From: an uncultured Ignavibacteria bacterium
GTDB taxonomy: Bacteria > Zixibacteria > MSB-5A5 > WJJR01
Direction: 5' to 3'
Assembly: GCA_964371625.1 (NCBI GenBank)
Contig: CAYJMP010000002.1
Location: forward strand, 197,034-261,033
DNA length: 64,000 nt
Shown: positions 3,334 to 49,198 of the stretch, piece by piece
Position numbering within the stretch: the stretch's first letter is position 1
How the letters are laid out: every line of letters starts with the position of its first letter
Position numbers and translations under genes: made by a program
The notes under the pieces: model-generated
Seen by the model: the letters and a program-made list of their open reading frames with translations, nothing else
Databases searched by the model: none
Told to the model about the DNA's origin: nothing

Positions 3334-4131
3334 CTAGAACCCTTGTACCTTCCCGGCCCGCTTGTAGAGATGCCAGACAATGTGCCAACCCAACGCGGTG
3401 ACAACCATGAATGCGATCCACCAAGTGTTCTGATCCAGCCCGAGATTGCCGCCGGAGAAAGTGGGTGTGTGGACGGTGATCATCGCCCAGAGCAGCGGCA
3501 GTGACAGGTAGGTGTTGTGGCGAGAACGTCCGGCGGCCAGGGCCGGCAATGCGGGATCGGGCGCCTGCCCATCCTTGATCGCCTTGATTATCTTCTGCTG
3601 TGCGGGCCAGATACGGTACCAGACATTGAACGCCATGATCGTGCCAAGCATCATGCCGATGTGAATATTGGCCGCGCGATAGGCGAACTTACCCCACATG
3701 ACCATGAGAATCAGCATCAGCCCGATGAGCACAAACCCGACAACACCAAATGCGCGCCCACTCTTCCCCAGACCACTCTTGGCCAGGGCATCATAGATGA
3801 ACGGCGACCCTAAGGCGGCGATTAGAATCAGAAGAATCGGCGCCAGCCCCCACGTTCCGGCGCCCGCCTCGAACATCTGCTTGCCGTGATAGAAGACCAA
3901 AAGCAGCAGAATCCATCCAAACGTAAACGTCCACATCGCCCCCCAGCGAAACCAGAACAGCGCCCGCGGCATGAGCTCGGGGACAACTTTCCGTTTCGTG
4001 TCGCCGTCCAGCGTCGCTGCAAACGGACCGTTCACGAAGTTGAAGAAATACAGATGCCCGATCCAGATAATGCCGAACAGGACATGCAACCAGCGAAACA
4101 GTGCCTCGAGTATTGGGCTGACTGTCTGCAC
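3334..4131 (-). CDS. Integral membrane protein of unknown function
   Basis: Six or more hydrophobic segments; N-terminal WLHVLFGIIWIGHLYFF motif; no confident family. Confidence 0.45.
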   Translation of the reverse strand: MQTVSPILEALFRWLHVLFGIIWIGHLYFFNFVNGPFAATLDGDTKRKVVPELMPRALFWFRWGAMWTFTFGWILLLLVFYHGKQMFEAGAGTWGLAPILLILIAALGSPFIYDALAKSGLGKSGRAFGVVGFVLIGLMLILMVMWGKFAYRAANIHIGMMLGTIMAFNVWYRIWPAQQKIIKAIKDGQAPDPALPALAAGRSRHNTYLSLPLLWAMITVHTPTFSGGNLGLDQNTWWIAFMVVTALGWHIVWHLYKRAGKVQGF

Positions 4132-4391
4132 CTTACCTCCTTGGTGTGCGAGTAGATTCCCGCGGGTCCGAGTCGATCAATCGGCGGTGAGCGCTTAAGA
4201 TGCGCCCCGCGAATGAGTTGGCAATACCTAATTTCCGCTCCTCCATGATGGACCTGATTTTCTTCCGGAATGCCAAACTTTCGCTTTCCCCTGCGTATGC
4301 TTTTGGGCGATACATCCGCCCCACCCGGTGGCACGAACCTTCAGGTCCGTGAGTCTGCCGGTCGCCGAAAACTTATGAGAGGATTCTGAAC

Positions 4392-5468
4392 GTGGCCAAT
4401 GAAGCCCAAATTCTGCAAGCCCTGAAATCCGTGATCGACCCTGACCTTCACCGGGACATTGTGACTCTCGGCTTCGTGAAAGACATCGCGGTCTGCGAAG
4501 ATATGGTCAAGGTGACGATCGAGCTGACCACCCCCGCGTGCCCGGTCAAAGACGATCTCAAGGCGCAGGCCGAGCGAGCCATTCGCGCATTGCCCGGCGT
4601 GAACGTCGTGAACATAAAAATGGATGCCCAAGTTCGCCCGAATTTGAGCGAGATGGGCCAGGCCCTGATCCCCGGCGTACGAAATGTTATCCCTGTCGGC
4701 TCGGGCAAAGGCGGTGTGGGAAAATCGACCGTCTCAGCCAATATCGCCGTCGCCCTGGCACAGACTGGCGCGCGCGTCGGGCTGATGGATGCCGACGTCT
4801 ATGGACCCAGTATCCCGACGATCCTGGGCATCACCGATCAGCCAGTGCCCGGCGAGCGCGGCATCATCCCGGTCAATGCTTATGGCGTCAAGGTCATCTC
4901 GATGGGGTTCTTCCTCAAACCCGACCAAGCTGTGGTCTGGCGTGGCCCGATGCTGACCAAGATGATCGAGCAGTTTCTTGGCGGTGTGGAATGGGGCGAT
5001 ATCGACTATCTGATTGTCGATCTGCCCCCGGGCACCGGCGATATCCAACTTTCACTTTGTCAGCGCATCCCGCTCACCGGCGCGGCGATTGTCTCGACGC
5101 CTCAGGACGTTGCCTTGAAAGTTGCTGAGAAGGCCGTAATTATGTTCAACCAACTGAAGACGCCAATCCTCGGTCTGATCGAGAACATGAGCTACTTCAC
5201 TTGCTCTCACTGTGGCGAACGCGAGCACATCTTCGACACCGGGGGTGCGCGACGCGCTGCCGAACGCCTTGGCGTCCCCTTCCTCGGTGAGATTCCGTTG
5301 GCGACACGTCTGCGCGAGACCTCTGATGCGGGAATCCCGATCGTCATCGCCGAGCCGGATTCGGAATCCGCGATGGCATTCCAGCAGATCGCACGCAACC
5401 TCGCCGCCCAAGTTAGCATCCGCAACTCTAAATCCGCGGAATCCGAACCGGTGAAGATCACATTCTGA
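4392..5468 (+). CDS. apbC: Mrp/ApbC Fe-S cluster carrier ATPase
   Basis: N-terminal DUF59-like region, Walker A GKGGVGKST, CxxC (CSHCGE) near C-terminus. Confidence 0.9.
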   Translation: MANEAQILQALKSVIDPDLHRDIVTLGFVKDIAVCEDMVKVTIELTTPACPVKDDLKAQAERAIRALPGVNVVNIKMDAQVRPNLSEMGQALIPGVRNVIPVGSGKGGVGKSTVSANIAVALAQTGARVGLMDADVYGPSIPTILGITDQPVPGERGIIPVNAYGVKVISMGFFLKPDQAVVWRGPMLTKMIEQFLGGVEWGDIDYLIVDLPPGTGDIQLSLCQRIPLTGAAIVSTPQDVALKVAEKAVIMFNQLKTPILGLIENMSYFTCSHCGEREHIFDTGGARRAAERLGVPFLGEIPLATRLRETSDAGIPIVIAEPDSESAMAFQQIARNLAAQVSIRNSKSAESEPVKITF

Positions 5469-5602
5469 AAGCACGGGTTAAAGACTGCGCTACGAGACAT
5501 CTCCATGCTGGCGTTCTTAAGTAGCACAGACTTTAGCCTGTGCCTGGTTCGTACAAGCCTTCCTGCCAATGTTCTCGTATCTTGAGAGTCTCAATCTAGG
5601 TT

Positions 5603-6607
5603 TTGCGTTCCACCACCATGCCAATGCACAGTCCTGAGACCATATCCTACACCGCCTCCGAAGCCGACGACGGTATTCGCATCGACCGTATCTTGGCCGA
5701 GCACTTCCCCGACTACTCCCGGTCGCAGATCCAGCGGGCGATTGAAGCTGACGCACTCCGAGTCAATGGCGCACCCGCCAAATCAAACTACCGCGTCACG
5801 ACTGATGACATCATTACCCTCGCGCTAGTCCGTCCTGAGCCAGAAGCCCAAGCCCCGACCGGTGAGGATATCGCGCTCGATGTCATCTTCGAAGACGAGC
5901 ATCTGCTGGTCATCAACAAGCCCGCAGGCATGGTCGTACACCCTGCGGTCGGACATCGCACCGGCACGCTGGTGAACGCGCTCCTCGGACGGGGGACTTT
6001 CGATGACGACGATCCCGAGTCGGCGACCAACCGTCCGGGCATCGTTCATCGTCTCGACAAAGGCACGTCCGGCCTCATGGTTGTCGCGCGGACCGAAATC
6101 GCTCATCGTCACTTGGCCAAGCAGTTGAAGGATCGGTCACTGTCACGCATCTATTGGGCCATTGTCTGGGGACACCTGAAGAAATCGCCAACCATCGTCG
6201 ATGCCCCGATCGGACGTTCACTGCGCGATCGCAAACGCATGGCGGTGAATGATTCAGGACGCGAGGCGAAGACCACGTTTCGCTCGATCGAGCGTTACGC
6301 CCTTGCCGATTGGGTCGAGGCCACCCTGAGCACTGGACGAACCCATCAAATTCGGGTCCACCTGTCTCACGCAGGGCACTCGGTGGTCGGCGACGAGGAA
6401 TACGGTGGCGGCGCTCCACGCATTGCCGGCATTGATCCGCGCTTCCGAGTCCTGGGACGCCGCATGCTCGCCTTGGTCGACCGCCCGGCCCTCCACGCGC
6501 AAAGCATCAAGTTCATTCATCCCACATCCGGCCAGGAATTGCTCTTCGACTCGCCGCCGCCGAGAGACTTTCAGGCTATACTCGATCTCTGCCGCTCTGA
6601 GAATTAA
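5603..6607 (+). CDS. rluD: RluA-family pseudouridine synthase (RluD-like); start codon uncertain
   Basis: S4-like N-terminus (RIDRILAEHF), catalytic HRLDKGTSGLMV motif. Confidence 0.8.
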   Translation: MRSTTMPMHSPETISYTASEADDGIRIDRILAEHFPDYSRSQIQRAIEADALRVNGAPAKSNYRVTTDDIITLALVRPEPEAQAPTGEDIALDVIFEDEHLLVINKPAGMVVHPAVGHRTGTLVNALLGRGTFDDDDPESATNRPGIVHRLDKGTSGLMVVARTEIAHRHLAKQLKDRSLSRIYWAIVWGHLKKSPTIVDAPIGRSLRDRKRMAVNDSGREAKTTFRSIERYALADWVEATLSTGRTHQIRVHLSHAGHSVVGDEEYGGGAPRIAGIDPRFRVLGRRMLALVDRPALHAQSIKFIHPTSGQELLFDSPPPRDFQAILDLCRSEN

Positions 6608-7069
6608 GCGTCGCTTCAAAATCCCGGACACGAAAGAAGCCTGATCGGACGAGTCGACTCATCCTCCCCTCTTCCGGGGTATTTCATCGAAGATGAATGG
6701 AGCGGCACGAGCGAATCCACAACCCGGACGAAATCTCTCTTGACCATCCCTGGGGTTCACGCGAGATTCCGCCTCATCGTCGGACCGGAGTGAGTCATCA
6801 TTCGCTTCATCGACTCGAATCCTGTCTGCAGCTCCACACAATGGCGAATGCAAAACTGAAGAGCCGATGAACCCGGGGACCCGCATTTGTGCGCCCTTCC
6901 CGCTTTGGAGAGCATTTAGATCTTCTATATCGCTGCGACGATAAGAGAACGACAAGACGAGAGTACGGGTGGAGGAGGTGGTGTTGGTGAATGTGTCGTG
7001 ATTGATCTCGACTTTCAATCAACGAATGAGTTCTCCCTCACAATCAAGCGATCTATCGAGGATTGAAAC

Positions 7070-9919
7070 ATGAAGCAACGCATTCTTCTCGTTATAGCCT
7101 GCGCCATCATGGTGCTGGGTCTGGCCGCCACGAGTTTCTCCGATCAAGTCATCCGCAAAGAGTTCGTACCGGTCGATGAGACGCCGCGCTGGGTTGAGGA
7201 CGAGTTCATTGTTGTCCTGAAGCCGGCATTTGTCTCCAGTTTCAATGTCCAGAGCGACAAGCGCGCCAACAGGGTTCAAGTCAGCGTCGCCTCTATCCAA
7301 CAACTGGTCAATGGCCACCAAGTCACGAGGATGCAGCGTCAGTTTGCCGCCGCCGCATCGCCGGAACTCGAAGCCTTTTACACAGTCAAGCTCGCCCCGG
7401 GACAGAGCCTCGACCTTGCCGCCGCGGCGTTTGCGTCCGACCCGGCGGTCGACCATGTCGAGAAGATCGGCATCCATCCTCTCTCGGCCAACTGCGCGAC
7501 CGGCACACCCCGCCCGGCAAATGACACCTATTACAACAACCCCCCGCCGACTTTTAACTGGCCGCTGTGGGGTCTGTGGGATACCAAAGGAATCGATGCC
7601 GAGATGGCATGGACAGTACAAGACGGAGATGCCACCGTCGTCGTCGTTGCCATGGACTCGGGTGTCAAGTACACGCACGGCGACCTGGGCGGCACCAATC
7701 CTCCCGGCCCGGCAGATAACTCCACCAATGGAAACGTCTGGGTGAACCCCTTCGAAATCCCCGCTAATGGCATCGACGACGAAGGAAACGGATTTATCGA
7801 CGACGTGGTCGGCTACGACTTCGTCACGGGAGTAACGGGCTGTGCGTCAGGCGAAGACTGCTCCACGGTCGACAACAACCCGATGGATTTCAACGGCCAC
7901 GGTACCCACACCGCCGGCACGATGGCCGCGATCACGAACAACGCGAAAGCTGTAGCCGGTGTTGCCGGCGGATTTGGCGATGGGACCACCGGCTCGGCCG
8001 GCAATGGCTGCAAGATCATGTGCATGCGTATCGGATGGTCCGACGCGGCCGGGAATGGCTACGTCCGCATGGATTTCGCCGCCCAGGCCATCAACTACGT
8101 CGTCGGCATGAAACAGCGCGGCGTCAATGTCGCCGCCATCAACTGTTCATGGGGCACGTCTAACTCCGGGGGTGTCGCCGCCGCCCTCGATGCAGCCATG
8201 AATAATGATATTCTCGTCTGCCATGCAGCCGGGAACTCCAACTCAAGCGTGGCCGACTACTTCGGCGGTCGTACCGAGATTCTCAATGTCGCCGCCACCG
8301 ATGAAGCGGGCTTGCGCGCCAGCTTCTCCAACTACGGCTCATGGGTGGACATTGCCGCACCGGGCGTTGCGATTATTAGCACCTATCAAGTCGGCACCGA
8401 CCCCGTTCCGGATTATGTCGCGGTGCTCGACGGCACCTCCATGGCGTCGCCCCATTGCGCCGGTGTCGCGGGACTTCTGGAATCGCAGAATTCTGCGCTG
8501 ACCCGCGCCAACAAATTCACCATCATGACGACCAACACCTGTGCCGCAGGCAGTGCGAACATCGGCGGAATTCTCAATGCCAAAAAAGCGCTCGACGCCG
8601 CTGGCGGTGGTGGACCTCAGCCTCCGGTCGCGGCGTTTGTTGGTTCACCCACATCCGGCTGCGTGCCTCTGACAGTGGCCTTCACCGATCAGTCGACCAA
8701 TACGCCGACAAGTTGGGCTTGGACCTTCGGCGATGGGGGCACCTCGACCGCACAGAACCCGTCCCACCAGTACAATGCCGCCGGATCTTACACTGTCACT
8801 CTGACCGCGACAAATGCGGCCGGCTCCGATGGGGAAACCAAGACCAACTACATCACCGTCGGCGCGGGCGCGCCGGTGGCCAACTTCAGCGGTGCGCCGA
8901 CCTCTGGAGCAGCGCCGTTGGCAGTCAACTTCACTGACTTGTCGACAAATGGCCCATCGTCCTGGTCCTGGACTTTTGGCGACGGTGGAACCTCGACCGC
9001 CCAGAACCCCTCCCACACGTATGCCGCCGAGGGAACCTACAACGTCTCGCTGACCGCGACCAATTCGTGCGGCAGCGATGGCGAGACCAAAGTCGGATAC
9101 ATCACGGTGAGCGCCGGCAGCGGTTGGACGGTCATAACCTCCGACAATTTTGAAACCGGCTTCGGAAGTTACACGGATGGCGGTACCGATTGCAGCCGCT
9201 ACACATCGACCACCCATGCGCACCAAGGGGCGGCGGCAATCGATATTCAGGACAACACGACGACTTCGCTATTTTCTCACACGGCGACGTACAACGTGAC
9301 CGGATACAACACGCTCGAGGTCTCGTTCTGGTTTAAGGCCGTGAGCATGGAAACTGGCGAGGATTTCTGGGTGCAGTACTTCAATGGGTCAACATGGCAG
9401 ACGGTGGCCGACTACAACAGTGGCACCGACTTTGCAAACAACACATTCTACAACAAAACGGTCACCATCTCCCGGAGCACGTACACCTTCCCAACCAACG
9501 CGAGAATCCGGTTCCGTTGCGACGCCAGCGACAACAACGACGATGTCTACATCGACGAAGTCGTGTTCCGCGGCACAACGGCGCTGCTCGCAGTGCCGGG
9601 CGAGGTGCCGACCGAAATCACTTCCGCCAATCCAGTGCCGCGTTCGTTCGGACTCGATCAGAACTATCCGAACCCGTTCAACGCCGGAACCAACATCTCC
9701 TTCTCGTTGCAACAGAGCGGCGATGTCAGCCTGGTCGTCTATGACATTCTCGGACGCACCGTTCGTCATCTCGCCGCCGGCTTCCATGCCGAAGGACAGC
9801 ACACCGTCGCCTTTGATGGCCGCGACGAAGATGGAGCGCCGCTCAGTTCGGGCGTCTATTTGTATCGCTTGATCGCACCCGGAGTCTCGCAGACGCGTAA
9901 GATGGTCCTGATGAAATAG
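7070..9919 (+). CDS. Secreted subtilisin-like S8 serine peptidase with two PKD-like domains and a T9SS C-terminal sorting domain
   Basis: Catalytic triad motifs AMDSGV / HGTHTAGT / GTSMASPH; two WxWTFGDGGTSTAQNPSH repeats; C-terminal NYPNPFN...KMVLMK sorting domain; GAGGA RBS upstream of ATG. Confidence 0.85.
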   Translation: MKQRILLVIACAIMVLGLAATSFSDQVIRKEFVPVDETPRWVEDEFIVVLKPAFVSSFNVQSDKRANRVQVSVASIQQLVNGHQVTRMQRQFAAAASPELEAFYTVKLAPGQSLDLAAAAFASDPAVDHVEKIGIHPLSANCATGTPRPANDTYYNNPPPTFNWPLWGLWDTKGIDAEMAWTVQDGDATVVVVAMDSGVKYTHGDLGGTNPPGPADNSTNGNVWVNPFEIPANGIDDEGNGFIDDVVGYDFVTGVTGCASGEDCSTVDNNPMDFNGHGTHTAGTMAAITNNAKAVAGVAGGFGDGTTGSAGNGCKIMCMRIGWSDAAGNGYVRMDFAAQAINYVVGMKQRGVNVAAINCSWGTSNSGGVAAALDAAMNNDILVCHAAGNSNSSVADYFGGRTEILNVAATDEAGLRASFSNYGSWVDIAAPGVAIISTYQVGTDPVPDYVAVLDGTSMASPHCAGVAGLLESQNSALTRANKFTIMTTNTCAAGSANIGGILNAKKALDAAGGGGPQPPVAAFVGSPTSGCVPLTVAFTDQSTNTPTSWAWTFGDGGTSTAQNPSHQYNAAGSYTVTLTATNAAGSDGETKTNYITVGAGAPVANFSGAPTSGAAPLAVNFTDLSTNGPSSWSWTFGDGGTSTAQNPSHTYAAEGTYNVSLTATNSCGSDGETKVGYITVSAGSGWTVITSDNFETGFGSYTDGGTDCSRYTSTTHAHQGAAAIDIQDNTTTSLFSHTATYNVTGYNTLEVSFWFKAVSMETGEDFWVQYFNGSTWQTVADYNSGTDFANNTFYNKTVTISRSTYTFPTNARIRFRCDASDNNDDVYIDEVVFRGTTALLAVPGEVPTEITSANPVPRSFGLDQNYPNPFNAGTNISFSLQQSGDVSLVVYDILGRTVRHLAAGFHAEGQHTVAFDGRDEDGAPLSSGVYLYRLIAPGVSQTRKMVLMK

Positions 9920-9943
9920 CTCGTTCTCCCTGAACGCACATCA

Positions 9944-9981
9944 ACACGCCCCCGGCGCTTCGCTGGGGGCGTGTTGCTTTT
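9944..9981 (+). terminator. Rho-independent terminator after protease gene
   Basis: Stem acacgccccc/gggggcgtgt followed by tgcttttc. Confidence 0.5.
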
Positions 9982-10142
9982 CGCGCGACGCGTAGGGGCG
10001 CATGGACATGCGCCCTACAGACGCCATCGCCATTCGGATTGAAGTGTAAACCGTACCACTACCCGCTGGCTTGGCCGCTTGTAGAATCCTCTCGAATTCC
10101 GTACCTTCTCCCAACGCGGACGCTCTCTGGCGTCCGCGTTTA

Positions 10143-11948
10143 ATGTATATGGACCAGAAACGCATCCGAAATTTTTCCATTATCGCCCACATCGACCATG
10201 GCAAGTCGACATTGGCCGACCGTCTCCTGGAGATGACCCACACGATTGATGTCCGCAAAATGCGCGAGCAGGTCCTGGACAACATGGACCTCGAACGCGA
10301 ACGCGGCATCACAATCAAGTCGCATGCCATTCGCATGAACTACCGCTCCAACGCGGGCGAAGACTTTGTCCTGAACTTGATCGATACACCCGGCCACGTA
10401 GACTTCAATTATGAAGTCTCACGCGCCTTGTCGGCTTGTGAAGGCGCAATCCTTGTTGTCGATGCCGCGCAGGGTATCCAGGCACAGACAGTCGCCAACG
10501 CGTATCTCGCCATCGAGGCCGGCCTGACGATTGTGCCGGTGTTGAACAAGATCGACCTGCCTTCCGCCGATCCTGACCGCCACGCCGAAGAGGTCGGCAA
10601 ACTGCTCTCTTGTGACCCCGATGAAGTCTTGCGCGTCTCAGCCAAGTCGGGCTTGAATACCGATTTGCTGCTCGAAGAGATCATCAAACGCATCCCGCCG
10701 CCGTCTGGAGATCCGAATGCTCCAATGCGGGCCCTGGTGTTCGATGCGGCGCACGATCTCTATCATGGGGCCATTGTCTACGTGCGCGTTGTCGATGGAA
10801 CGTTGAAAGCCGGCGACCACATCCGGTTCTTCTCGCATCCCGATGTCCATCCGGTCGAAGAGACCGGAATCATGCAAATGCGTGCGATCCCGCGCGAAAC
10901 GCTTGGCGCCGGCGAAGTCGGGTACATCCTGGCCCACGTGAAAGACATCCATGAAGCCCGTGTCGGCGACACAGTCATAAACTCCGATAATGCCGGAGCC
11001 GAACCACTTCCCGGCTTTCGCGCGATCAAGCCGATGGTCTTTTCCGGTCTTTACCCAGCAGACTCCGACCAATATTCCGATCTGCGCGTGGCGCTGGATA
11101 AATTGCGACTCAACGATGCCTCGCTGTCATTCCAGCCGGAACGATCTCTGGCGCTCGGATTCGGGTTCCGCTGTGGTTTTCTCGGCCTGTTGCACTTGGA
11201 GATTGTGAAGGAACGGTTGGCGCGTGAATTCGATCAGCCGATTGTCGCCACTGTCCCGAACGTGGAGTATCGAATCCACATGACCAACGGTGAGGTCCGC
11301 ACGATCGACAATCCCGCCGACATTCCGCCGCGCGGGCAGTATGAGGCGATCGCCGAGCCGTACGTGCGCGCCCACATCGTCTGCCCCTCAGAGGCGGTCG
11401 GCACAGTCATGACTCTGGCAACTTCCAAACGCGGCAACTACATCAATACCGAATATATCGGCGACCGTGCCCGGCTGATCTTCGACTTCCCGTTGGCCGA
11501 AATCATCTTTGAATTTTATGACCGCCTCAAGTCCGTCACCCGCGGCTACGGCTCGCTCGACTACGATTTCCTCGAGTACCGCGAAAACGCCCTCGATAAA
11601 CTGGAAATCCGCCTGGCGGGCGAGACGGTCGATGCGCTCTCATCGGTGGTTCACCGGGATAATGCCTACCGGATCGGACGCAAGCTTTGCGAAACGCTTA
11701 AAGAGCTGATTCCCAGACAGCAATTCGAAGTCATCATCCAAGCCGCGATCGGCGGCGGCAAACCCATTGCGCGCGAGTCGGTCAAGCCCCTGCGCAAGGA
11801 TGTCATCGCCAAACTCTACGGCGGCGACGTGACCCGCAAACGCAAGCTCCTCGAGAAGCAAAAAGAGGGGAAAAAGCGGATGAAGCGTGTGGGAAAAGTC
11901 GACGTCCCGCCTGAAGCGTTCCTCGCCGTCCTCAAGATCAGTGATTGA
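10143..11948 (+). CDS. lepA: Translation elongation factor 4 (LepA)
   Basis: GTPase motifs AHIDHGKST, DTPGHVDF, NKID; LepA-like C-terminus; start placed at internal ATG (MYMDQKRIRNFSIIAH) rather than the ORF-track start at 10071. Confidence 0.9.
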   Translation: MYMDQKRIRNFSIIAHIDHGKSTLADRLLEMTHTIDVRKMREQVLDNMDLERERGITIKSHAIRMNYRSNAGEDFVLNLIDTPGHVDFNYEVSRALSACEGAILVVDAAQGIQAQTVANAYLAIEAGLTIVPVLNKIDLPSADPDRHAEEVGKLLSCDPDEVLRVSAKSGLNTDLLLEEIIKRIPPPSGDPNAPMRALVFDAAHDLYHGAIVYVRVVDGTLKAGDHIRFFSHPDVHPVEETGIMQMRAIPRETLGAGEVGYILAHVKDIHEARVGDTVINSDNAGAEPLPGFRAIKPMVFSGLYPADSDQYSDLRVALDKLRLNDASLSFQPERSLALGFGFRCGFLGLLHLEIVKERLAREFDQPIVATVPNVEYRIHMTNGEVRTIDNPADIPPRGQYEAIAEPYVRAHIVCPSEAVGTVMTLATSKRGNYINTEYIGDRARLIFDFPLAEIIFEFYDRLKSVTRGYGSLDYDFLEYRENALDKLEIRLAGETVDALSSVVHRDNAYRIGRKLCETLKELIPRQQFEVIIQAAIGGGKPIARESVKPLRKDVIAKLYGGDVTRKRKLLEKQKEGKKRMKRVGKVDVPPEAFLAVLKISD

Positions 11949-12101
11949 CAGAAACCGCTGTGTTGTGAATCAGGAGGATAGGCATTCCTGCCTGTCTATC
12001 GATTCGCGCGTGCCAATCGCTCACCGAAAGTCCCAAGCGGAGCCGAGGGATTGATTGGCCGCGCGAATCGAATGGGTGTGCGCCGACGTCCCTCGTCGCA
12101 A

Positions 12102-12144
12102 GTGCCCCACAGTTTTGTCCGCCGCAGGCGGACTTGCTGTGGGA
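12102..12144. repeat. 43-bp nested-hairpin repeat, copy 1
   Basis: gtgccccacagttttgtccgccgcaggcggacttgctgtggga; exact reverse complement present at 12297..12339. Confidence 0.8.
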
Positions 12145-12296
12145 CTCATCCAATGAGTAGATTTCCTTATGAATTGATTGCAACTGTTCGCCAATCCAGC
12201 GCAGTGCGTGTGCTCGAGTTTCAATGCGTATCACGGGATGGCGGACATCCCGCTGACGGTAGAGCCGATTCCACTTTGATTTCGCGAATGAGAGAT

Positions 12297-12339
12297 TCCC
12301 ACAGCAAGTCCGCCTGCGGCGGACAAAACTGTGGGGCAC
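12297..12339. repeat. 43-bp nested-hairpin repeat, copy 2 (inverted)
   Basis: Exact reverse complement of 12102..12144; 152-bp spacer between copies. Confidence 0.8.
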
Positions 12340-12465
12340 CCGGCGTTGGCGGACGGCTCTTGCGGGTTACAGCAGTCCCGCTCTTGGCCCACACGGGAAG
12401 TACACCAACGATGAAATGTCAGCAGCCTCGGATTATCAGCCGATAGCGAGGTAAAGGAGACAGTC

Positions 12466-13230
12466 TTGCACACTCAAGGGATTCGCTGCCGAAAGGTAGA
12501 GGAGATAGGGTATCCGAACGTGGCCGCCATCCTCGCCGTCGCACTAGCGGTCTGCCTTTCCTCTTCGTGTTCGGCCGGAGTCGCCAGTCGTCGAGATACG
12601 TTGGCCATGTGGCTCAGCAAGAATGAGACATTGGCTATACCAATTACTCAGGCTCACGTTCTAGCCGACTCGATGCCGGCCGGAATAGTAAACCATGAAG
12701 TCTTCTCACGCGATGAGACGCCCACCCACCTAGCTGGCAGGTGCATTAGTCTGGCGCCACAAGCGAGCGGAGCCGGGTCGTCGACAGGCACTCGCTTCTC
12801 GCTCTGTATATTCAGTGTGCCTGGAATCTTTTATGCCTCTGTATTTGACGAGTTATCTGGTGGGGGCACGATTATCTGGGATACCACGACCACGAATGAT
12901 GTCCTTCAACCTGCCTTCCAGGTCACTCAGTTCGGTGGAAATGGAGATACGTCGCTGACAGTGATCGTATCGAGTCTGGCCGCGGGGCTGGGCGGAATGC
13001 GGAGCTTTGGCCTAATCAATTGGGATGGAAGGATCGCGCGGCTGCTCGGGACGTTCTACGGTACGCAGCTCGATACGTTAGATATGGACAAGGACGGGAT
13101 TGTGGAACTTAAGGTCACCGACATTATAGACTATCAGACACGAATGACGATTGATCGATACTACAAACTCGACCCTATGAAACGTCAATATGAGGTGATG
13201 GAGGTTCATCCTGATTCGTTGCGCAAGTAA
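12466..13230 (+). CDS. Hypothetical secreted protein with N-terminal signal peptide, in an AT-richer segment
   Basis: Long ORF with hydrophobic signal-like N-terminus (VAAILAVALAVCLSSSCSAG); few overlapping spurious ORFs, consistent with lower GC than surroundings. Confidence 0.45.
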   Translation: MHTQGIRCRKVEEIGYPNVAAILAVALAVCLSSSCSAGVASRRDTLAMWLSKNETLAIPITQAHVLADSMPAGIVNHEVFSRDETPTHLAGRCISLAPQASGAGSSTGTRFSLCIFSVPGIFYASVFDELSGGGTIIWDTTTTNDVLQPAFQVTQFGGNGDTSLTVIVSSLAAGLGGMRSFGLINWDGRIARLLGTFYGTQLDTLDMDKDGIVELKVTDIIDYQTRMTIDRYYKLDPMKRQYEVMEVHPDSLRK

Positions 13231-13256
13231 TGGATCACTTCACGCGCGAAGCGCGA

Positions 13257-13280
13257 GTGCCCCACAGCCTTGTTCGCCGC
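13257..13280. repeat. Degenerate third copy of the 12102 repeat
   Basis: gtgccccacagccttgttcgccgc, about 20 of 24 positions identical to the start of copy 1; lies just downstream of ORF 12466..13230. Confidence 0.5.
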
Positions 13281-19915: not shown

Positions 19916-20959
19916 ATGGAACTCGAACTGAAAATCATCAGCGGCAACGCCAACCGGCCGCTGGCCCAACGCATCGCCGAACATCTCGATCGGTCGCTGA
20001 CCACCTGCACCGTGACGAAGTTCTCCGACGGCGAGGTCTTCGTCAAGATCGACGAGAACGTCCGCGGCTCCGACCTCTTCATCGTTCAATCGACCAACAC
20101 GCCCGCCGAAAACCTGATGGAATTGTTGATGCTGATCGACGCCGCGCGGCGTGCCTCGGCCAAACGCATCACCGCCGTCATCCCCTACTTCGGCTATGCG
20201 CGCGCCGATCGCAAAGATCAGCCCCGCGTCTCGATCACCGCCCGGCTCATCGCTGACATGATCACGCTGGCCGGCGCGGATCGCGTCTTGACGATGGATC
20301 TCCATGCCTCGCAGATTCAGGGCTTCTTCCAGATTCCTTCCGACCACTTGTATTCGGCCATCGTGTTTAACGATTTCTTCCTGAAACTCGGCGTGACCGA
20401 TCCAGTCGTCGTCTCGCCAGACGTTGGTTCGATCAAGATGGCGCGCGCCTTTGCCAAGACGCTCTCTTGCAGCTTGGCGATCGTCGACAAGCGCCGTCCC
20501 AATCCCAACCAGGCCGAAGTGCTTAACATCATCGGCTCGGTCGAAGGCCGGGCTGCGATTCTGCGCGACGACATGGTCGACACCGCAGGGACACTGACCG
20601 AAGCGGCCAAGGCCGTAGTCAAGGCCGGCGCCAAGAAAGTCTACGCCTGCTGCACGCACCCGGTGCTCTCGGGAAAGTCGCTCGAACGCATTGCGGAGTC
20701 GCCGATCGAACGCCTCTGCGTCGCCGATACGATAGACTTAAGCCACCGCACCCTGCCGGAAAAGATCGGCATCATCTCCACCGCGCACCTGTTCGCTGAG
20801 GCCATCGCGCGCATCGCCCATGAACAGTCGATCTCGGCGCTGTTTCCTCCCGAGCCGGATGGCTCCGAGGAACGACAGCAACAGCGCCTGGATCTCGATG
20901 CGACACCCGGTCAAACCGAACGCAAACCCATACGAACAAACGCGCCCCATGGGGCCTGA
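19916..20959 (+). CDS. prs: Ribose-phosphate pyrophosphokinase
   Basis: PRPP synthetase motifs (VSPDVGS, DDMVDTAGTL); canonical position next to rplY. Confidence 0.9.
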   Translation: MELELKIISGNANRPLAQRIAEHLDRSLTTCTVTKFSDGEVFVKIDENVRGSDLFIVQSTNTPAENLMELLMLIDAARRASAKRITAVIPYFGYARADRKDQPRVSITARLIADMITLAGADRVLTMDLHASQIQGFFQIPSDHLYSAIVFNDFFLKLGVTDPVVVSPDVGSIKMARAFAKTLSCSLAIVDKRRPNPNQAEVLNIIGSVEGRAAILRDDMVDTAGTLTEAAKAVVKAGAKKVYACCTHPVLSGKSLERIAESPIERLCVADTIDLSHRTLPEKIGIISTAHLFAEAIARIAHEQSISALFPPEPDGSEERQQQRLDLDATPGQTERKPIRTNAPHGA

Positions 20960-20993
20960 TCGTACGTCACTTGTGATTGAGGAGTAAGAAGCA

Positions 20994-21716
20994 ATGAAGA
21001 CCATGCCTTTGTCCGTCAAACCACGAATCGCCACCGGAAAAGGCGGAGCCCGTCAATTGCGCGCCGCCGGCTCGATTCCCGCCACCTTCTACGGCGGCGA
21101 AACTGAGCCCGCCACTCTGGCGGTTAACCGACATGAATTCTCCATCGTCTTGCACAAGTCATCTTCCGAAAACGTGATCGTTGACTTGAACGTTGAGGGG
21201 GCTGCGAAAGCCGAACTGGCGCTCGTTAAGGATGTGCAGCACGACCCCGTCTCGGGTGAAGTCATTCACGTCGACTTCCAGCACATTTCCGCCGACAAGC
21301 CCATCCGCGTCACGGTCCCGATTCGCGTCCTCGGTCTCGCCGATGGCGTGAAGAACTTCGGCGGTGTGCTCCAGCATTCGGCCCGTGAGGTTCAGGTCGA
21401 AGCGCTTCCCGCCGCCATTCCCGACCACATCGATCTCGATGTAACTAATCTCGGCATCCATCAGGCTATCCACGCCAGCGATATCGCGATTGAAGGCGTC
21501 ACCGTCGTGACCTCCGGCGATCAGACCATCGTCTCGGTCGTGCCGCCGACGGTTGTCAAGGAAGTCACTCCGGGCGCGACGGTCACAGAAGAAGCGGCTG
21601 CCGGCGAGCCCGAAGTCATCGGCGAGAAGGAACGCGAAGCCCGCGCCGCCGAAAAGGGCCCGGAAGAAGGAAAGGGAAAGGAGAAGGAGAAGGAGAAGGG
21701 CAAGGAAAAGAAATAA
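20994..21716 (+). CDS. rplY: 50S ribosomal protein L25 / general stress protein Ctc
   Basis: L25/Ctc-like N-terminus; long KE-rich C-terminal tail. Confidence 0.85.
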   Translation: MKTMPLSVKPRIATGKGGARQLRAAGSIPATFYGGETEPATLAVNRHEFSIVLHKSSSENVIVDLNVEGAAKAELALVKDVQHDPVSGEVIHVDFQHISADKPIRVTVPIRVLGLADGVKNFGGVLQHSAREVQVEALPAAIPDHIDLDVTNLGIHQAIHASDIAIEGVTVVTSGDQTIVSVVPPTVVKEVTPGATVTEEAAAGEPEVIGEKEREARAAEKGPEEGKGKEKEKEKGKEKK

Positions 21717-21726
21717 CCTATGCCCT

Positions 21727-21767
21727 CGTCATTGCGAGGCGGGCGTTCTTCGCCCGACGAAGCAATC
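21727..21767. repeat. Dispersed intergenic palindromic element, copy A
   Basis: cgtcattgcgagg + palindromic core cgggcgttcttcgcccg + acgaagcaatc; same termini recur at 23716, 40800 (inverted) and 40875. Confidence 0.7.
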
Positions 21768-21839
21768 CCCTTTGTTATCACTCAGCGCCCGATGTCTCCT
21801 TCAAGGAGACCTCGGGCGTTGTTCATTTGAGAGTATCGC

Positions 21840-23705
21840 TTGCTGACATTGTTTCTTAATCCGGCTGTTCTCTCGCTCGCGATCGACCTCATCCTGGGCC
21901 GCTTCGCGACATTCAATCTCGAGCAGAAATCATTCTACCTGCTCACACTGGCGGGGTCCACCGCCTGGTGGATGTTCCTCGCCTGGATTGTCCGCGCTCC
22001 CCTCACACGTCGCAATCAGATTCTCTCAACCGGCATCGCTCTTCTCTATGCGGTCACCTTCGTCCTCGTGTACGGATACCGCGCGACCACGGGCACGATG
22101 CCGAACTATTACACCTTCGAATACATCTTTGCGGAACCATTCAACAGCTGGACACTCTTGCGGGACACCTGGAGTTGGGTGTACACGCTGGCGATTCCCG
22201 TGGTAGCCCTGATCTTTTGGCTCGGGTTCACACGCTGGCGCGCTTACCTGGCCGCTCGCTGTCAGAAGCGACGGCACGCGGTCGTCGCCGGCGTGGCATT
22301 GTCTCTCGCCGTGATCATTCAGTTGGTGATTCACAACAACATCCGCTTCGTCGATCAGTGCTTCACTGCCGACATGACCGTGTCGACCAGCATCATGCGG
22401 AATTTCTATACGCGCTTCACTGACCCGAACGCCGGACGCAGCGGACTGGCGGCGCGGATGCCGATTGCCGTGCCGGAAATCCGTCCCGCAGAGGGCTCGC
22501 GTTCACCCAACCTGCTCGTCATTCTGACTGAATCGTTACGCGCCGATGCGCTGGGAATCTATGGGAGCTCCCGCCCCACAACACCGTTCCTCGATTCCCT
22601 CTGCAGAAATTATCCAGGGACGGTAGCACGATTCGACAACGCCTTCGCCTCGGCGACCATGACCTTTATCGCTGTGCCCACATTTGTGACCGGAGTATCG
22701 CCTTTGGCATCGGCGCTGACCTTGCACACACAGCCGACGTTTTGGGAGTACTGCAAGGCCGCTGGCTACGAGACTTTCTTCTTCACCTCGCAAAGCCAGG
22801 AATGGGAGAACATCAAAACATTCTTCACTATTCCCGCCATCGATCATCACTTCAATAAGGAGACCGTGGGCATCGGCGAGAAGAACGATCTCGGCATCGA
22901 CGATCACTATGTCGTTGACCACTTCATCTCGTGGCTCCAAAGTCGAAAGGAAAGCACGCCCTTCACCGGCATACTTCAACTCAATCAGACACATTATCCC
23001 TTTTGGACTCCCGACAGCCTGCGTCTCTTCGGCGAGACAGATCGCCGCGACCTTTACGACAACGCAGTCCGTTACACCGATGGCCAATTGCGGCGCGTCA
23101 TCACGGCCATCGCGATGCACGGAGAGTTGGACAACACCGTCATCGTCCTGACCTCCGACCACGGTGAGGCATTCAATGAGCATGGCATCTTCGGCCATCT
23201 GAACTGCCTCTACCGCGAAGGTATCCGCGTGCCCATGATTTTGTTTGTGCCGCCGATGGATGAGACCGATGGCCCGCGCTCTAAAGAGCTTGAGATTCTA
23301 ATCCGCAACACAGCAGCCGGCGTCAGCAATCTGGACGTTCTCCCCACACTGCTCGATTTCGCGGGAATCTGGAATGACTCACTGATCGCAGCAATTCGCA
23401 CGGGCATCGCTGGGTATTCCCTGCTTGAACCGCTGCCCACTGACCGGATCGTCGTCACCTCGAATCTGACCGAGATGACCCGCAATCACCTCGGCTTGTC
23501 GCTGGTGACCGGCAACTGGCACTACATCCTGAATCTGCAAGGCGAGAAAACTGGTGTTGAAGAACTGTATGACTGGGAACACGACCCGGCTGAAGCAAAC
23601 AACGTCATCACGAGTATTCCTCCGGATCTTCGACTACGCCTCGACCAATACCTGGCATCCTACCCTGTCTCCCAACGAATTAGGAAGTCACTTCCTCCGG
23701 GCTAA
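21840..23705 (+). CDS. Membrane-anchored sulfatase-fold (alkaline-phosphatase superfamily) protein, EptA/LtaS-like transferase
   Basis: N-terminal transmembrane helices followed by sulfatase-like domain (LVILTESLRADALGIYG, VLTSDHGEAFNEHG). Confidence 0.65.
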   Translation: MLTLFLNPAVLSLAIDLILGRFATFNLEQKSFYLLTLAGSTAWWMFLAWIVRAPLTRRNQILSTGIALLYAVTFVLVYGYRATTGTMPNYYTFEYIFAEPFNSWTLLRDTWSWVYTLAIPVVALIFWLGFTRWRAYLAARCQKRRHAVVAGVALSLAVIIQLVIHNNIRFVDQCFTADMTVSTSIMRNFYTRFTDPNAGRSGLAARMPIAVPEIRPAEGSRSPNLLVILTESLRADALGIYGSSRPTTPFLDSLCRNYPGTVARFDNAFASATMTFIAVPTFVTGVSPLASALTLHTQPTFWEYCKAAGYETFFFTSQSQEWENIKTFFTIPAIDHHFNKETVGIGEKNDLGIDDHYVVDHFISWLQSRKESTPFTGILQLNQTHYPFWTPDSLRLFGETDRRDLYDNAVRYTDGQLRRVITAIAMHGELDNTVIVLTSDHGEAFNEHGIFGHLNCLYREGIRVPMILFVPPMDETDGPRSKELEILIRNTAAGVSNLDVLPTLLDFAGIWNDSLIAAIRTGIAGYSLLEPLPTDRIVVTSNLTEMTRNHLGLSLVTGNWHYILNLQGEKTGVEELYDWEHDPAEANNVITSIPPDLRLRLDQYLASYPVSQRIRKSLPPG

Positions 23706-23715
23706 CGCGAAGAAT

Positions 23716-23782
23716 CGTTATTGCGAGGAGAGAGGCGTTTTTATCGCCGACCGACGCTTGTCCGCCGCGGCGGGAAGCAATC
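23716..23782. repeat. Dispersed intergenic palindromic element, copy E (longer core)
   Basis: cgttattgcgagg ... ggaagcaatc termini with GC-rich palindromic core (gtccgccgcggcgg). Confidence 0.6.
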
Positions 23783-23919
23783 TCTGTTCAGCGGACCGCC
23801 CCGCCCTCTTGCCCGGCGCCCTAACATTTCCTATTTTGCGTACGACTCACATCCAGTTTGGGTGGCCCTGATCCGCCGCGGCGGATTAGGGCAAGCGAAG
23901 CGAGCAGACCGACATTTCC

Positions 23920-40799: not shown

Positions 40800-40849
40800 G
40801 ATTGCTTCGTCGGTCCGGCATAAAGCCGCCGACCATTCTCGCAATGACG
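40800..40849. repeat. Dispersed intergenic palindromic element, copy B' (inverted orientation)
   Basis: gattgcttcgtc ... attctcgcaatgacg, i.e. the reverse complement of the cgtcattgcgag...gacgaagcaatc termini. Confidence 0.65.
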
Positions 40850-40874: not shown

Positions 40875-40917
40875 CGTCATTGCGAGGAGGAGCGCTCTCC
40901 GCGACGACGAAGCAATC
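40875..40917. repeat. Dispersed intergenic palindromic element, copy B
   Basis: cgtcattgcgagg aggagcgctctccgcg acgacgaagcaatc; 25 bp from the inverted copy B'. Confidence 0.7.
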
Positions 40918-47566: not shown

Positions 47567-49198
47567 TTAGAATTGCAGGCTCATTCCCGCTTCCAACCTG
47601 TGCCCGCGCGTGTCGTCCCCGCCACTCAACTGACCGAGAGCATTGAGCGCGAGTGCCTGGGTAATTCCAACCCGGACTGTCAGATCCGCGCGTCGATTCA
47701 GACGGGCGTCGGAATTGCCTGCGAGAGTGTAACTGTACAGTCCCGCGCCAAGGCTGATCCAGTCGCGTTGACCAACACCCTGTCCCAAGGATGCGTTGAG
47801 ATTGTAACCGGAGGTGGCATCGCTCACGAAACGGACCCCCTGCACGCTGAAACTGCTCTTGGGGTTGAAAAGACCCTGCTTGCGCACGGCGCCATTGTAT
47901 GAGGTTGTCCGGTCCTGCTCTCCTTCCACTGAACGCACACCCGCACCGGCGGACAGATAGATCCCTTCCGGCAAGGCAAGATCGAATTGCGTCCGGACAC
48001 CCTGACGCACACGATCATCAAAGATGCTGTCGGCGATATCACGCGTCTCGTAGGTCCGGTAGCTCTTACGTGTGTCGTAGGACACCGACGCGGTGAGACT
48101 GCGCGTGAGATTCACCCGCCCCTGTGCGTAGATCGTCGAGAGACTGATTGACTGACTGTTTTCACTCTTGCGCCAGCCGCGATTGACATCAAGCTCGAGG
48201 CTGTGACTGAGGTTCCAACGGCCATTGCGTGCCATGCGGCCTTGGGCGAACAGCGCCTCGCGGCTCGCCGTCCCGCCATGGTACTGCCCGACGACGGAAA
48301 ACGTCTGATCCAGCAGGAAGTCGCGCGCCGACCCGCGCCGGTAACCAGCATACGCGCCGTAAGTCTGAAGATTCGGGCGATTCTCTGCGTACTGCCATTG
48401 CGAATTGGCTCCACCGAAAATCCCGATGCGCGCGAATTGCGAAACACGATACTCAATGGAACCGCCATCCAGCCGGCCGATGGCGCCCACGCGTGCTGGA
48501 TTGATTCGACCCATCGACATCCCTGCCCGCGAACCTTCGGGTTTGTACTCCAAAACGAAAGTCGCAATGCGACTCTCCCAAGAGTTCTCACGACCATCAT
48601 CACTGGGAACAACACGGCGATCCCGTCTCCCCGACGTTCGAAGGGCGAATGACAGCCCCGGCGTCCAGAGTGGCTCGACGCGGAGATCGATATCGACCCG
48701 CCCCTGGCCGAAATCCAGCCCGGCATCGCTGTGATCGTCCCAGTTGCTGTACATCATCGCAATTGAGCCAGATGCCTCCGGATGGATCGCCGGACCATCA
48801 TTGACGCGGGATTCGACGGGATCTACTCGTTGAATCTGGGAGAGCGCTTCTGCGGTTGACTGGGGAGCTGGTTCGGAGGTATCTGGCACGGCACGAAGCT
48901 CAACGTTGAGCTTGACGACATCACCTACCGATAGACTCACAACGGGTTCAGGCATCCGGCACGCCGAAGAGTGTTCTGCCAGATGGAGCACCTCGAGTTC
49001 GGCGATTTTCTGATCGTCACGGAATACCACGGGTCTCGCCCCGACAAACAGTCCTTCCGCCCTGCCCCCATTCAGATACACCAGGTCCGCGGAAACAAAT
49101 GTCACCTTGAGCACACGCTCGATGGTTTCCGCGCAGACCACAGACGCAGACAACAGGAGTATCGCGACGCAAATCGAGACGGCGACAAGAGATCTCAC
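47567..49198 (-). CDS. Outer-membrane beta-barrel protein (putative porin partner of the cytochromes)
   Basis: Signal peptide; alternating aromatic/hydrophilic beta-strand pattern; C-terminal ...GMSLQF with terminal Phe; GTG start overlaps cytochrome stop (GTGA). Confidence 0.6.
   Translation of the reverse strand: MRSLVAVSICVAILLLSASVVCAETIERVLKVTFVSADLVYLNGGRAEGLFVGARPVVFRDDQKIAELEVLHLAEHSSACRMPEPVVSLSVGDVVKLNVELRAVPDTSEPAPQSTAEALSQIQRVDPVESRVNDGPAIHPEASGSIAMMYSNWDDHSDAGLDFGQGRVDIDLRVEPLWTPGLSFALRTSGRRDRRVVPSDDGRENSWESRIATFVLEYKPEGSRAGMSMGRINPARVGAIGRLDGGSIEYRVSQFARIGIFGGANSQWQYAENRPNLQTYGAYAGYRRGSARDFLLDQTFSVVGQYHGGTASREALFAQGRMARNGRWNLSHSLELDVNRGWRKSENSQSISLSTIYAQGRVNLTRSLTASVSYDTRKSYRTYETRDIADSIFDDRVRQGVRTQFDLALPEGIYLSAGAGVRSVEGEQDRTTSYNGAVRKQGLFNPKSSFSVQGVRFVSDATSGYNLNASLGQGVGQRDWISLGAGLYSYTLAGNSDARLNRRADLTVRVGITQALALNALGQLSGGDDTRGHRLEAGMSLQF

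Follow-up and report, generated by a model that had tools for sequence, protein, structure and literature searches.

A Hairpin Repeat Resembling CGTC-Tagged REP Elements behind Genes of an Uncultured Zixibacteria Genome and in Other Bacterial Phyla and Phages

Results

The stretch of DNA analyzed, hereafter the window, consists of 64,000 nucleotides of contig CAYJMP010000002.1 from an uncultured bacterium placed by GTDB among the Zixibacteria; the nearest named homologue of this lineage is also from Zixibacteria, at 48% identity. In the window, rplY (ctc), the gene of ribosomal protein L25, is followed by a gene for a membrane-anchored protein of the sulfatase fold and then by a radical S-adenosylmethionine (SAM) gene. 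A short palindromic element lies behind each of the first two genes (elements A and E), and an inverted pair of such elements (C and D) is found elsewhere in the window (Table 1). All four probably represent one small non-coding hairpin repeat, to be placed inside or beside the superfamily of repetitive extragenic palindromic (REP) elements that carry a CGTC tag.

A first-pass annotation, made from the sequence of the window, had described A and E as same-orientation copies with conserved termini and differing GC-rich palindromic cores, each lying 11 bp behind the end of a gene. Both copies are present at the positions given. They begin at the 11th base beyond a stop codon, leaving 10 nt in between, and are oriented in the sense of the gene that they follow. 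The description of the cores was confirmed and applies to all four copies: neither the sequence nor the length of the cores (about 17 to 45 nt) is shared, each has its own GC-rich hairpin, and the total length of the copies ranges from 41 to 67 nt. Common to the four is a clamp that can be written as (C/T)GTC-ATTGC-GA-G...C-GAA-GCAAT-C. The first description of the termini needs a small correction for E, in which the tag is CGTT instead of the CGTC present in A, C, and D and the 3′ end lacks the C of CGAAGCAAT.

Element A is composed of the CGTC tag, the ATTGC-GA-G side of the clamp, the core hairpin CGGGCG-TTCTT-CGCCCG, the C-GAA-GCAAT side of the clamp, and a C; as DNA it folds with an energy of -12.3 kcal/mol with the outer stem formed. 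Element E has the same clamp behind its CGTT tag, and its core includes two hairpins, GGCG-TTTTTAT-CGCC and CCGCCGCGGCGG. The 3′ tails of the four copies read CCC, CTC, CTT, and CTT. Elements C and D are separated by a 25-nt spacer and fold together as a single long hairpin (z = -8.75). Element C is located 29 nt past the stop of an ABC (ATP-binding cassette) ATPase gene and element D 33 nt ahead of the start of a YbbR-like gene. A possible 4-nt target duplication, CCCT, was noticed around A; it is absent at C, D, and E and was taken as chance.

Table 1. Location of the repeat copies and of other features of the window.
Feature	Position	Strand	Description
Element A	21727-21767	+	41 nt; CGTCATTGCGAGG-CGGGCGTTCTTCGCCCG-ACGAAGCAATC
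Element E	23716-23782	+	CGTTATTGCGAGG-45 nt core-GGAAGCAATC
Element C	40800-40849	-	Left half of inverted pair, CGTC tags inward
Element D	40875-40917	+	Right half of inverted pair with C
rplY/ctc	20994-21716	+	Ribosomal protein L25, 240 aa; PF01386, PF14693
Sulfatase-like gene	21840-23705	+	Membrane-anchored sulfatase-fold protein, phosphoethanolamine/phosphoglycerol transferase-like, 621 aa; PF00884
Hairpin, then TTGTTCATTT	21783-21821 (to 21829 with tail)	+	Between rplY and sulfatase-like gene, outside the repeat family
TCCGCCGCGGCGG palindrome	23761-23773		13 nt, nested in the core of E
GCCCTGATCCGCCGCGGCGGATTAGGGC palindrome	23863-23893 (core 23872-23885)		In the leader of the radical-SAM gene
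TTGCCC-18 nt-TATTTT	23809-23838		Promoter-like, upstream of the radical-SAM gene
46-nt inverted repeat pair	12102-12147 and 12294-12339		Partial copy at 13245-13280
Giant open reading frame	49195-54372	-	1725 aa
Giant open reading frame	57455-63985	-	2176 aa

Similarity within chance was the doubt that accompanied the first description of the termini. The pattern ATTGCGAG-N5-35-AGCAAT has three matches in the window, and 0.01 were expected. A relaxed two-part scan, in which up to two mismatches were tolerated in one part and one in the other with a gap of up to 62, returned exactly A, E, C, and D; the 30 Markov controls averaged 0.33 matches. The observation made on A and E was therefore confirmed, since the two-terminus pattern is far above expectation. 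The idea that the shared termini are a chance likeness among ordinary, unrelated terminator hairpins could draw on the fact that neither terminus, when scanned alone in the window, reaches significance, and that only the two together do. With the combined pattern seen four times against 0.01–0.33 expected, and with the same 20 specified bases recurring in at least 120 DNA stretches in each of the two collections described below, chance is excluded as an explanation for all practical purposes.

The pattern GTCATTGCGAG-N5-35-CGAAGCAATC was used to scan 185,579 species genomes as well as viral contigs, and at least 120 DNA stretches were matched in each case. Among the matches listed, at least 11 bacterial phyla are represented, as read from the organism names of the matched records, and the clamp also occurs in phage contigs. 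The genome matches listed include Alpha- and Gammaproteobacteria, with many from Bradyrhizobium, Sphingomonas, and Novosphingobium, as well as Desulfobacterota, Chloroflexota, Cyanobacteria and Melainabacteria, Bacteroidota and Ignavibacteria, Patescibacteria, Zixibacteria, Planctomycetota, Latescibacterota, Helicobacter rodentium, and Sporomusa. In one of the IMG/VR contigs, L142, the region 3339-12744 is a genuine structural module of a phage, comprising genes for portal, capsid, and connector, and six ATTGCGAG..GAAGCAAT copies lie between these genes, all of them antisense to the genes. BLAST searches located the element in Helicobacter canis prophages, in a Novosphingobium megaplasmid (at least 40 places), and on plasmids of Methylobacterium, Methylosinus, Legionella, and cyanobacteria. 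Nearly all full-length BLAST matches have no annotated feature beneath them, and the elements had been left unannotated in the records examined. Gene callers sometimes translate such elements into spurious small open reading frames (ORFs). At the Rfam gathering threshold only a tRNA was reported in the window, permissive scans of the three spacers gave only noise, and a search of the literature for the bare sequence of the motif brought up nothing but primer noise.

The anatomy of the family was drawn from about 400 copies. Of 201 cross-phylum copies, 66% have a C and 29% a T ahead of GTC, at a position that the search pattern leaves unconstrained, and the tail in these copies consists of C followed by C (62%) or T (34%), A (53%) or C (37%), and G (51%), that is, C(C/T)(A/C)G. 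The commonest unit has 22 nt and reads ATTGCGA-GCGNAGC-GAAGCAAT. Its GCGNAGC core, present in 82 of 196 genome copies, takes the forms GCGAAGC, GCGCAGC, GCGTAGC, and GCGGAGC. DNA of the sequence GCGNAGC forms an extraordinarily stable mini-hairpin that melts at about 76 °C (PMC13037366). In a set of 31 distinct 28-nt copies the clamp is invariant and four of the five core pairs change on both sides (18 cells), a covariation reached by none of 500 shuffles and far above that of slid controls. Judged by these alignments, the hairpin structure is under selection. Where core positions depart from Watson–Crick pairing, 36 of 66 are G.A or A.G and only two are G.T. About half of the copies occur in inverted pairs with approximately 25–34 nt between cores; in the genome loci, 50 such pairs have their tags outward and 5 inward, and three pairs are direct. 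The C/D pair of the window has the rarer tag-inward arrangement. Many copies across the loci lie within 20 nt past a stop codon. By inspection, the GA/GAA loop was also compared with a kink-turn and a sarcin-ricin motif, and this reading was dropped, as the strand lengths are unsuitable.

Comparison with related genomes separated the history of the elements from that of the genes around them. The order ispE-spoVG-prs-rplY-sulfatase-radical SAM is kept in all four relatives compared (L002, L004, L006, and L007), in which the sulfatase-like protein is 64–70% identical. Element A is absent in all four. The spacer between rplY and the sulfatase-like gene measures 123 nt in the window and 40–82 nt in the relatives, and removal of the 41-nt A from the window sequence leaves 27 nt ahead of a conserved hairpin, a distance equal to that in L006. 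The C/D element is also absent from the orthologous spacer of three other relatives: this spacer is reduced to 17 nt in L255, and holds a different hairpin in L254 and other palindromes in L253. Since they are missing from the orthologous spacers of relatives while the gene order is unchanged, A, C, and D are insertions specific to this lineage. A different picture is seen at the E site, which holds elements with the same clamp in three of five lineages, the window included, and their cores are all different. In L004 it reads GTCATTGCGAGG-ACCGTAGGGAC-AAAGCAATC-TTTGT and in L007 GTCATTGCGAGG-(28 nt)-GAAGCAGTC-TTTGT; these two elements, of E-type clamp and unrelated core, lie 6 and 8 nt past the stop. 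No element is present at the E site in L002 and L006, where other hairpins are found. Either the E site is old and its core drifts, or it has been struck repeatedly.

In the relatives, the same spacers (2775-3000 in L253, 2761-3000 in L254, and 7855-8086 in L007) are filled by other small palindromes, such as GCTGTCAGCCC-AAG-GGCTGACAGC and GGGTCAGCCC-TT-GGGCTGACCC, and by a TGTC-ATCGCGGC...GCCGCGGT unit similar to other REPs of the CGTC type. Hairpin repeats seem to have hot spots in these intergenic spacers.

The first-pass annotation had raised the possibility that A and E mark a cassette boundary, and a reading along this line would make them recombination sites, or cassette boundaries in the manner of direct repeats or of the attC sites of integrons, that delimit a mobile sulfatase-like gene. 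Two copies in the same orientation do flank the gene, each directly behind an ORF as an attC site would be, and the resemblance extends to the imperfect palindromes with conserved ends and variable center and to attC sites acting as folded single strands. The core sites of attC are RYYYAAC and GTTRRRY, and the termini of the elements are unlike this consensus. Neither an integrase nor a transposase was found among the genes flanking the four copies, which are prs, rplY, the sulfatase-like gene, and genes for a radical SAM protein, an ABC ATPase, YbbR, and TsaD. Above all, the gene is vertically conserved in its context: the comparison proposed with the first description showed the sulfatase gene to be present with or without elements, the gene order being fixed in four relatives that all lack A and two of which have no element at the E site. 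The cassette idea is thus refuted, and the apparent bracketing is one copy behind each of two consecutive co-directional genes. The flanked gene itself had been correctly recognized, as PF00884 covers residues 223–510 of its product and four to five hydrophobic segments are found at the N-terminus.

A role as terminators, also suggested in the first-pass annotation, was not supported in its canonical form: a consensus scan for intrinsic terminators did not pick up any of the four copies, and no copy has a T-run tail, the tails being CCCCTTTG, CTCTGTTC, CTTTTTCT, and CTTTGTCA. Outside the repeat family, the hairpin located between rplY and the sulfatase-like gene is kept with few changes in L004, L006, and L007. 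By its sequence it is likely to be the rplY terminator, or an attenuator upstream of the sulfatase-like gene, and it is a likelier candidate for the rplY terminator than element A. When this conserved terminator-like hairpin was used in a metagenome scan for more relatives, only unrelated terminators were retrieved.

A wider proposal at the RNA level is that the elements are mainly 3′-end hairpins for termination, exonuclease block, or ribosome stalling and are kept for that purpose, their mobility being secondary. The position of A and E, both in gene sense and 10 nt past a stop, agrees with it, and TTTGT follows the element at non-orthologous sites (A, D, and the E-site copies of L004 and L007). 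Liang, Rudd and Deutscher reportedly showed in 2015 that REPs stall ribosomes when no more than about 15 nt separate the hairpin from the stop. According to the survey of CGTC-tagged REPs (PMC3733652), REPs located near 3′ ends are transcribed, and many E. coli REPs are able to stall ribosomes just before the termination codon (PMC12306157). Orientation data can be read both ways. Across the loci, 32 copies within 20 nt past stops are co-oriented with the gene and 4 are not, but this figure was downgraded because it reflects mostly dimer geometry once singletons are split from pairs. Within 30 nt of the stop of a long ORF in the genome loci, paired copies are co-oriented in 27 cases against 3, and singletons, which still favor the proposal, in 9 against 1 (p = 0.02). 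Singletons in viral loci have no orientation bias (14 versus 17–22), and the six copies of the L142 phage module are all antisense. Other observations oppose a primary function in RNA: a canonical T-run is missing from all copies, A is followed by another, conserved hairpin that does have a T-rich tail, relatives manage without the element at the same sites, and G.U wobbles are almost absent, while C-GNA-G loops and G.A mismatches are typical of DNA hairpins. A mainly RNA-level function is, on balance, a minority possibility. For A and E in particular, the 10-nt spacing hints faintly at a possible role in 3′-end protection or ribosome stalling.

Discussion

The first-pass annotation had compared the elements to REPs and to the bacterial interspersed mosaic elements (BIMEs) built from them, a comparison that proved apt, as the tag, the stem base, the dimer habit, and the position at gene 3′ ends are those of CGTC-tagged REPs and the family is very large and dispersed. 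CGTC-tagged REPs were described as families CGTC-1 to CGTC-4 by Di Nocera, De Gregorio and Rocco in 2013 (PMC3733652), and they include dRS3 of Neisseria and RPE-4 and RPE-6 of Rickettsia. According to that paper, their hallmarks are a terminal CGTC that is often TGTC (also CCTC), stems that open with A-T pairs, a CCA tail, a predominance of dimers, often inverted and with 20–100 bp spacers, an intergenic location close behind the preceding ORF, and no dedicated transposase. The unpaired CGTC/TGTC tag is found in A, C, D, and the cross-phylum copies; the stem starts with A-T pairs (ATTGC...GCAAT) in all four window copies; the tail fits less clearly, being CCA-like in most cross-phylum copies but CCC, CTC, or CTT in the window; and inverted dimers prevail, the 25-nt spacer of C/D falling within the published range. 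The distances of A, E, and C from the preceding stops, the distribution over many phyla, and the lack of an associated transposase are also in line with the published description.

Several points speak against this assignment or against the mobility that it would imply. CGTC-1 to CGTC-4 are described as uninterrupted stems of 8–9 bp with a loop of 4–5 nt, whereas here the stem has only 5 bp, with a GA/GAA internal loop and one G-C pair above it, and the place of the small loop is taken by a variable apical hairpin of 5 to more than 45 nt. The tails of the window copies are CCC, CTC, and CTT(TGT) and not CCA. Recent copy-and-paste of one master copy does not easily account for four unrelated cores within a genome, and the four copies were counted within 64 kb of a 3.3-Mb genome. 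No polymorphism was detected in five other assemblies of the same strain, which are 100% identical over 3.9 kb, so that there is no sign of movement going on at this place. An ORF with a HUH/Y1 motif was found neither in the window nor in 127 loci, by a crude regular expression that makes this a weak negative.

With respect to the geometry, the 2013 authors state that classes with bulges may have escaped detection. The stems of CGTC-1, CGTC-2, and CGTC-3 differ from the present one according to peptide read-outs of the supplement, the phyla in which the clamp occurs exceed the five reported for CGTC repeats, and neither the ATTGCGAG/GCAAT consensus nor its translated peptides occur in the text and supplements of the paper (PMC3733652). 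Given that most hallmarks of CGTC-tagged REPs are there and the stem and loop geometry of the four families is not, we consider it quite probable that the family is a further member of this kind, set apart from CGTC-1 to CGTC-4 as far as these are described in the text and supplement. The window would then add a lineage from which this known kind of element had not been described. For the window, a false lead, the mobile sulfatase cassette, is removed and four intergenic oddities are explained as REP-type repeats.

Other known structures are more distant. GTAG REPs and REPINs and the REP/BIME elements of E. coli are also short extragenic hairpins with an unpaired 4-nt tag, and they share the inverted doublets foldable as one long hairpin, the location at gene 3′ ends, and the lineage-variable presence. 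They differ in that the tag is GTAG (GT(A/G)G) instead of CGTC, that GTAG REPs and REPINs are mobilized by REP-associated tyrosine transposases (RAYTs), IS200/IS605-like Y1 enzymes whose gene is flanked by the repeats, and that REPs and RAYTs are usually lineage-specific pairs, while the termini of the present family are nearly identical across phyla and a crude motif search found no RAYT-like gene beside any copy. The mini-hairpin DNA d(GCGNAGC) is exactly the commonest core of the family (PMC13037366), but it is a physico-chemical motif and not a repeat family, and the four window copies have longer GC-rich cores. Intrinsic terminators have in common with the elements a GC-rich hairpin shortly past the stop, followed in this clade by the weakly T-rich TTTGT; they differ by the T-run directly behind the stem, and their termini, unlike those found here, are not conserved across phyla.

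Returning to the elements as CGTC-type REPs, the plan of a copy is an unpaired CGTC or TGTC tag, an invariant basal clamp made of the ATTGC/GCAAT 5-bp stem, the GA/GAA internal loop, and one G-C pair, an apical hairpin that varies freely as long as it pairs, and a short tail. Copies were inserted in intergenic spacers just 3′ of genes, and their presence varies among lineages with fixed gene order. By analogy with GTAG REPs and RAYTs, the clamp and tag may be recognized as a folded single strand of DNA by an enzyme acting in trans. We infer single-stranded DNA as the substrate because of the C-GNA-G loops, the tandem G.A mismatches, the scarcity of wobbles, and the lack of an orientation rule in phages. 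Tolerance of insertions could explain why the elements persist at gene 3′ ends; a stable hairpin may in addition protect the 3′ end of the mRNA, and one placed 10 nt beyond a stop codon could hinder the terminating ribosome.

CGTC-type REPs had no known mobilizing enzyme as of 2013, according to the survey (PMC3733652). The invariant 20-nt clamp, the covarying core, the mini-hairpin signature, and the phage copies offer a sharp handle for finding this enzyme. A more daring proposal, which we regard as rather unlikely, is that the clamp is the recognition site of one very widespread trans-acting factor on folded single-stranded DNA. If so, the factor would be an orphan transposase or nuclease, or else a conserved host replication or repair protein, and phages would help the spread. 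On this view other small palindromes could nest in the apical hairpin, a free cargo position, as in E, and the family would be an orphan pan-bacterial mobile element apart from the REP/RAYT system.

Other Features of the Window

A second family of palindromes is represented in the window. The TCCGCCGCGGCGG palindrome nested in the core of E is the 13-nt core of the GCCCTGATCCGCCGCGGCGGATTAGGGC palindrome, which is absent in relatives, and it resembles the core of the inverted repeats near 12.1 kb. Palindromes of the TCCGCCGCGGCGG type occur, besides the copy in E, at 23872-23885, 12118-12132, and 12309-12323; three pattern matches were found and 0.04 were expected. The arms of the 46-nt inverted repeat pair are 98% complementary and 146 nt apart, and each of them is itself palindromic (CCCACAG..GTCCGCC-GCAG-GGCGGAC..CTGTGGG). 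From its sequence, the pair looks like a miniature inverted-repeat transposable element or a REPIN-type doublet of a second repeat family.

The usual order of genes in bacteria is prs-rplY(ctc)-pth. In the window (19916-23705) and in all relatives examined, the sulfatase-fold membrane gene occupies the place behind rplY where pth is expected. The promoter-like TTGCCC/TATTTT sequence upstream of the radical-SAM gene is kept in five of five lineages, which suggests that the sulfatase-like and radical-SAM genes are separate transcription units. The two giant ORFs toward the end of the window contain tandem 216-nt and 258-nt repeats. The 216-nt repeats encode Cys-rich motifs; on the coding strand several copies have, for instance, TGCTTCGCCTGCCAC (C-x-x-C-H), and this composition suggests that the ORF with these repeats may encode a very large multihaem cytochrome.

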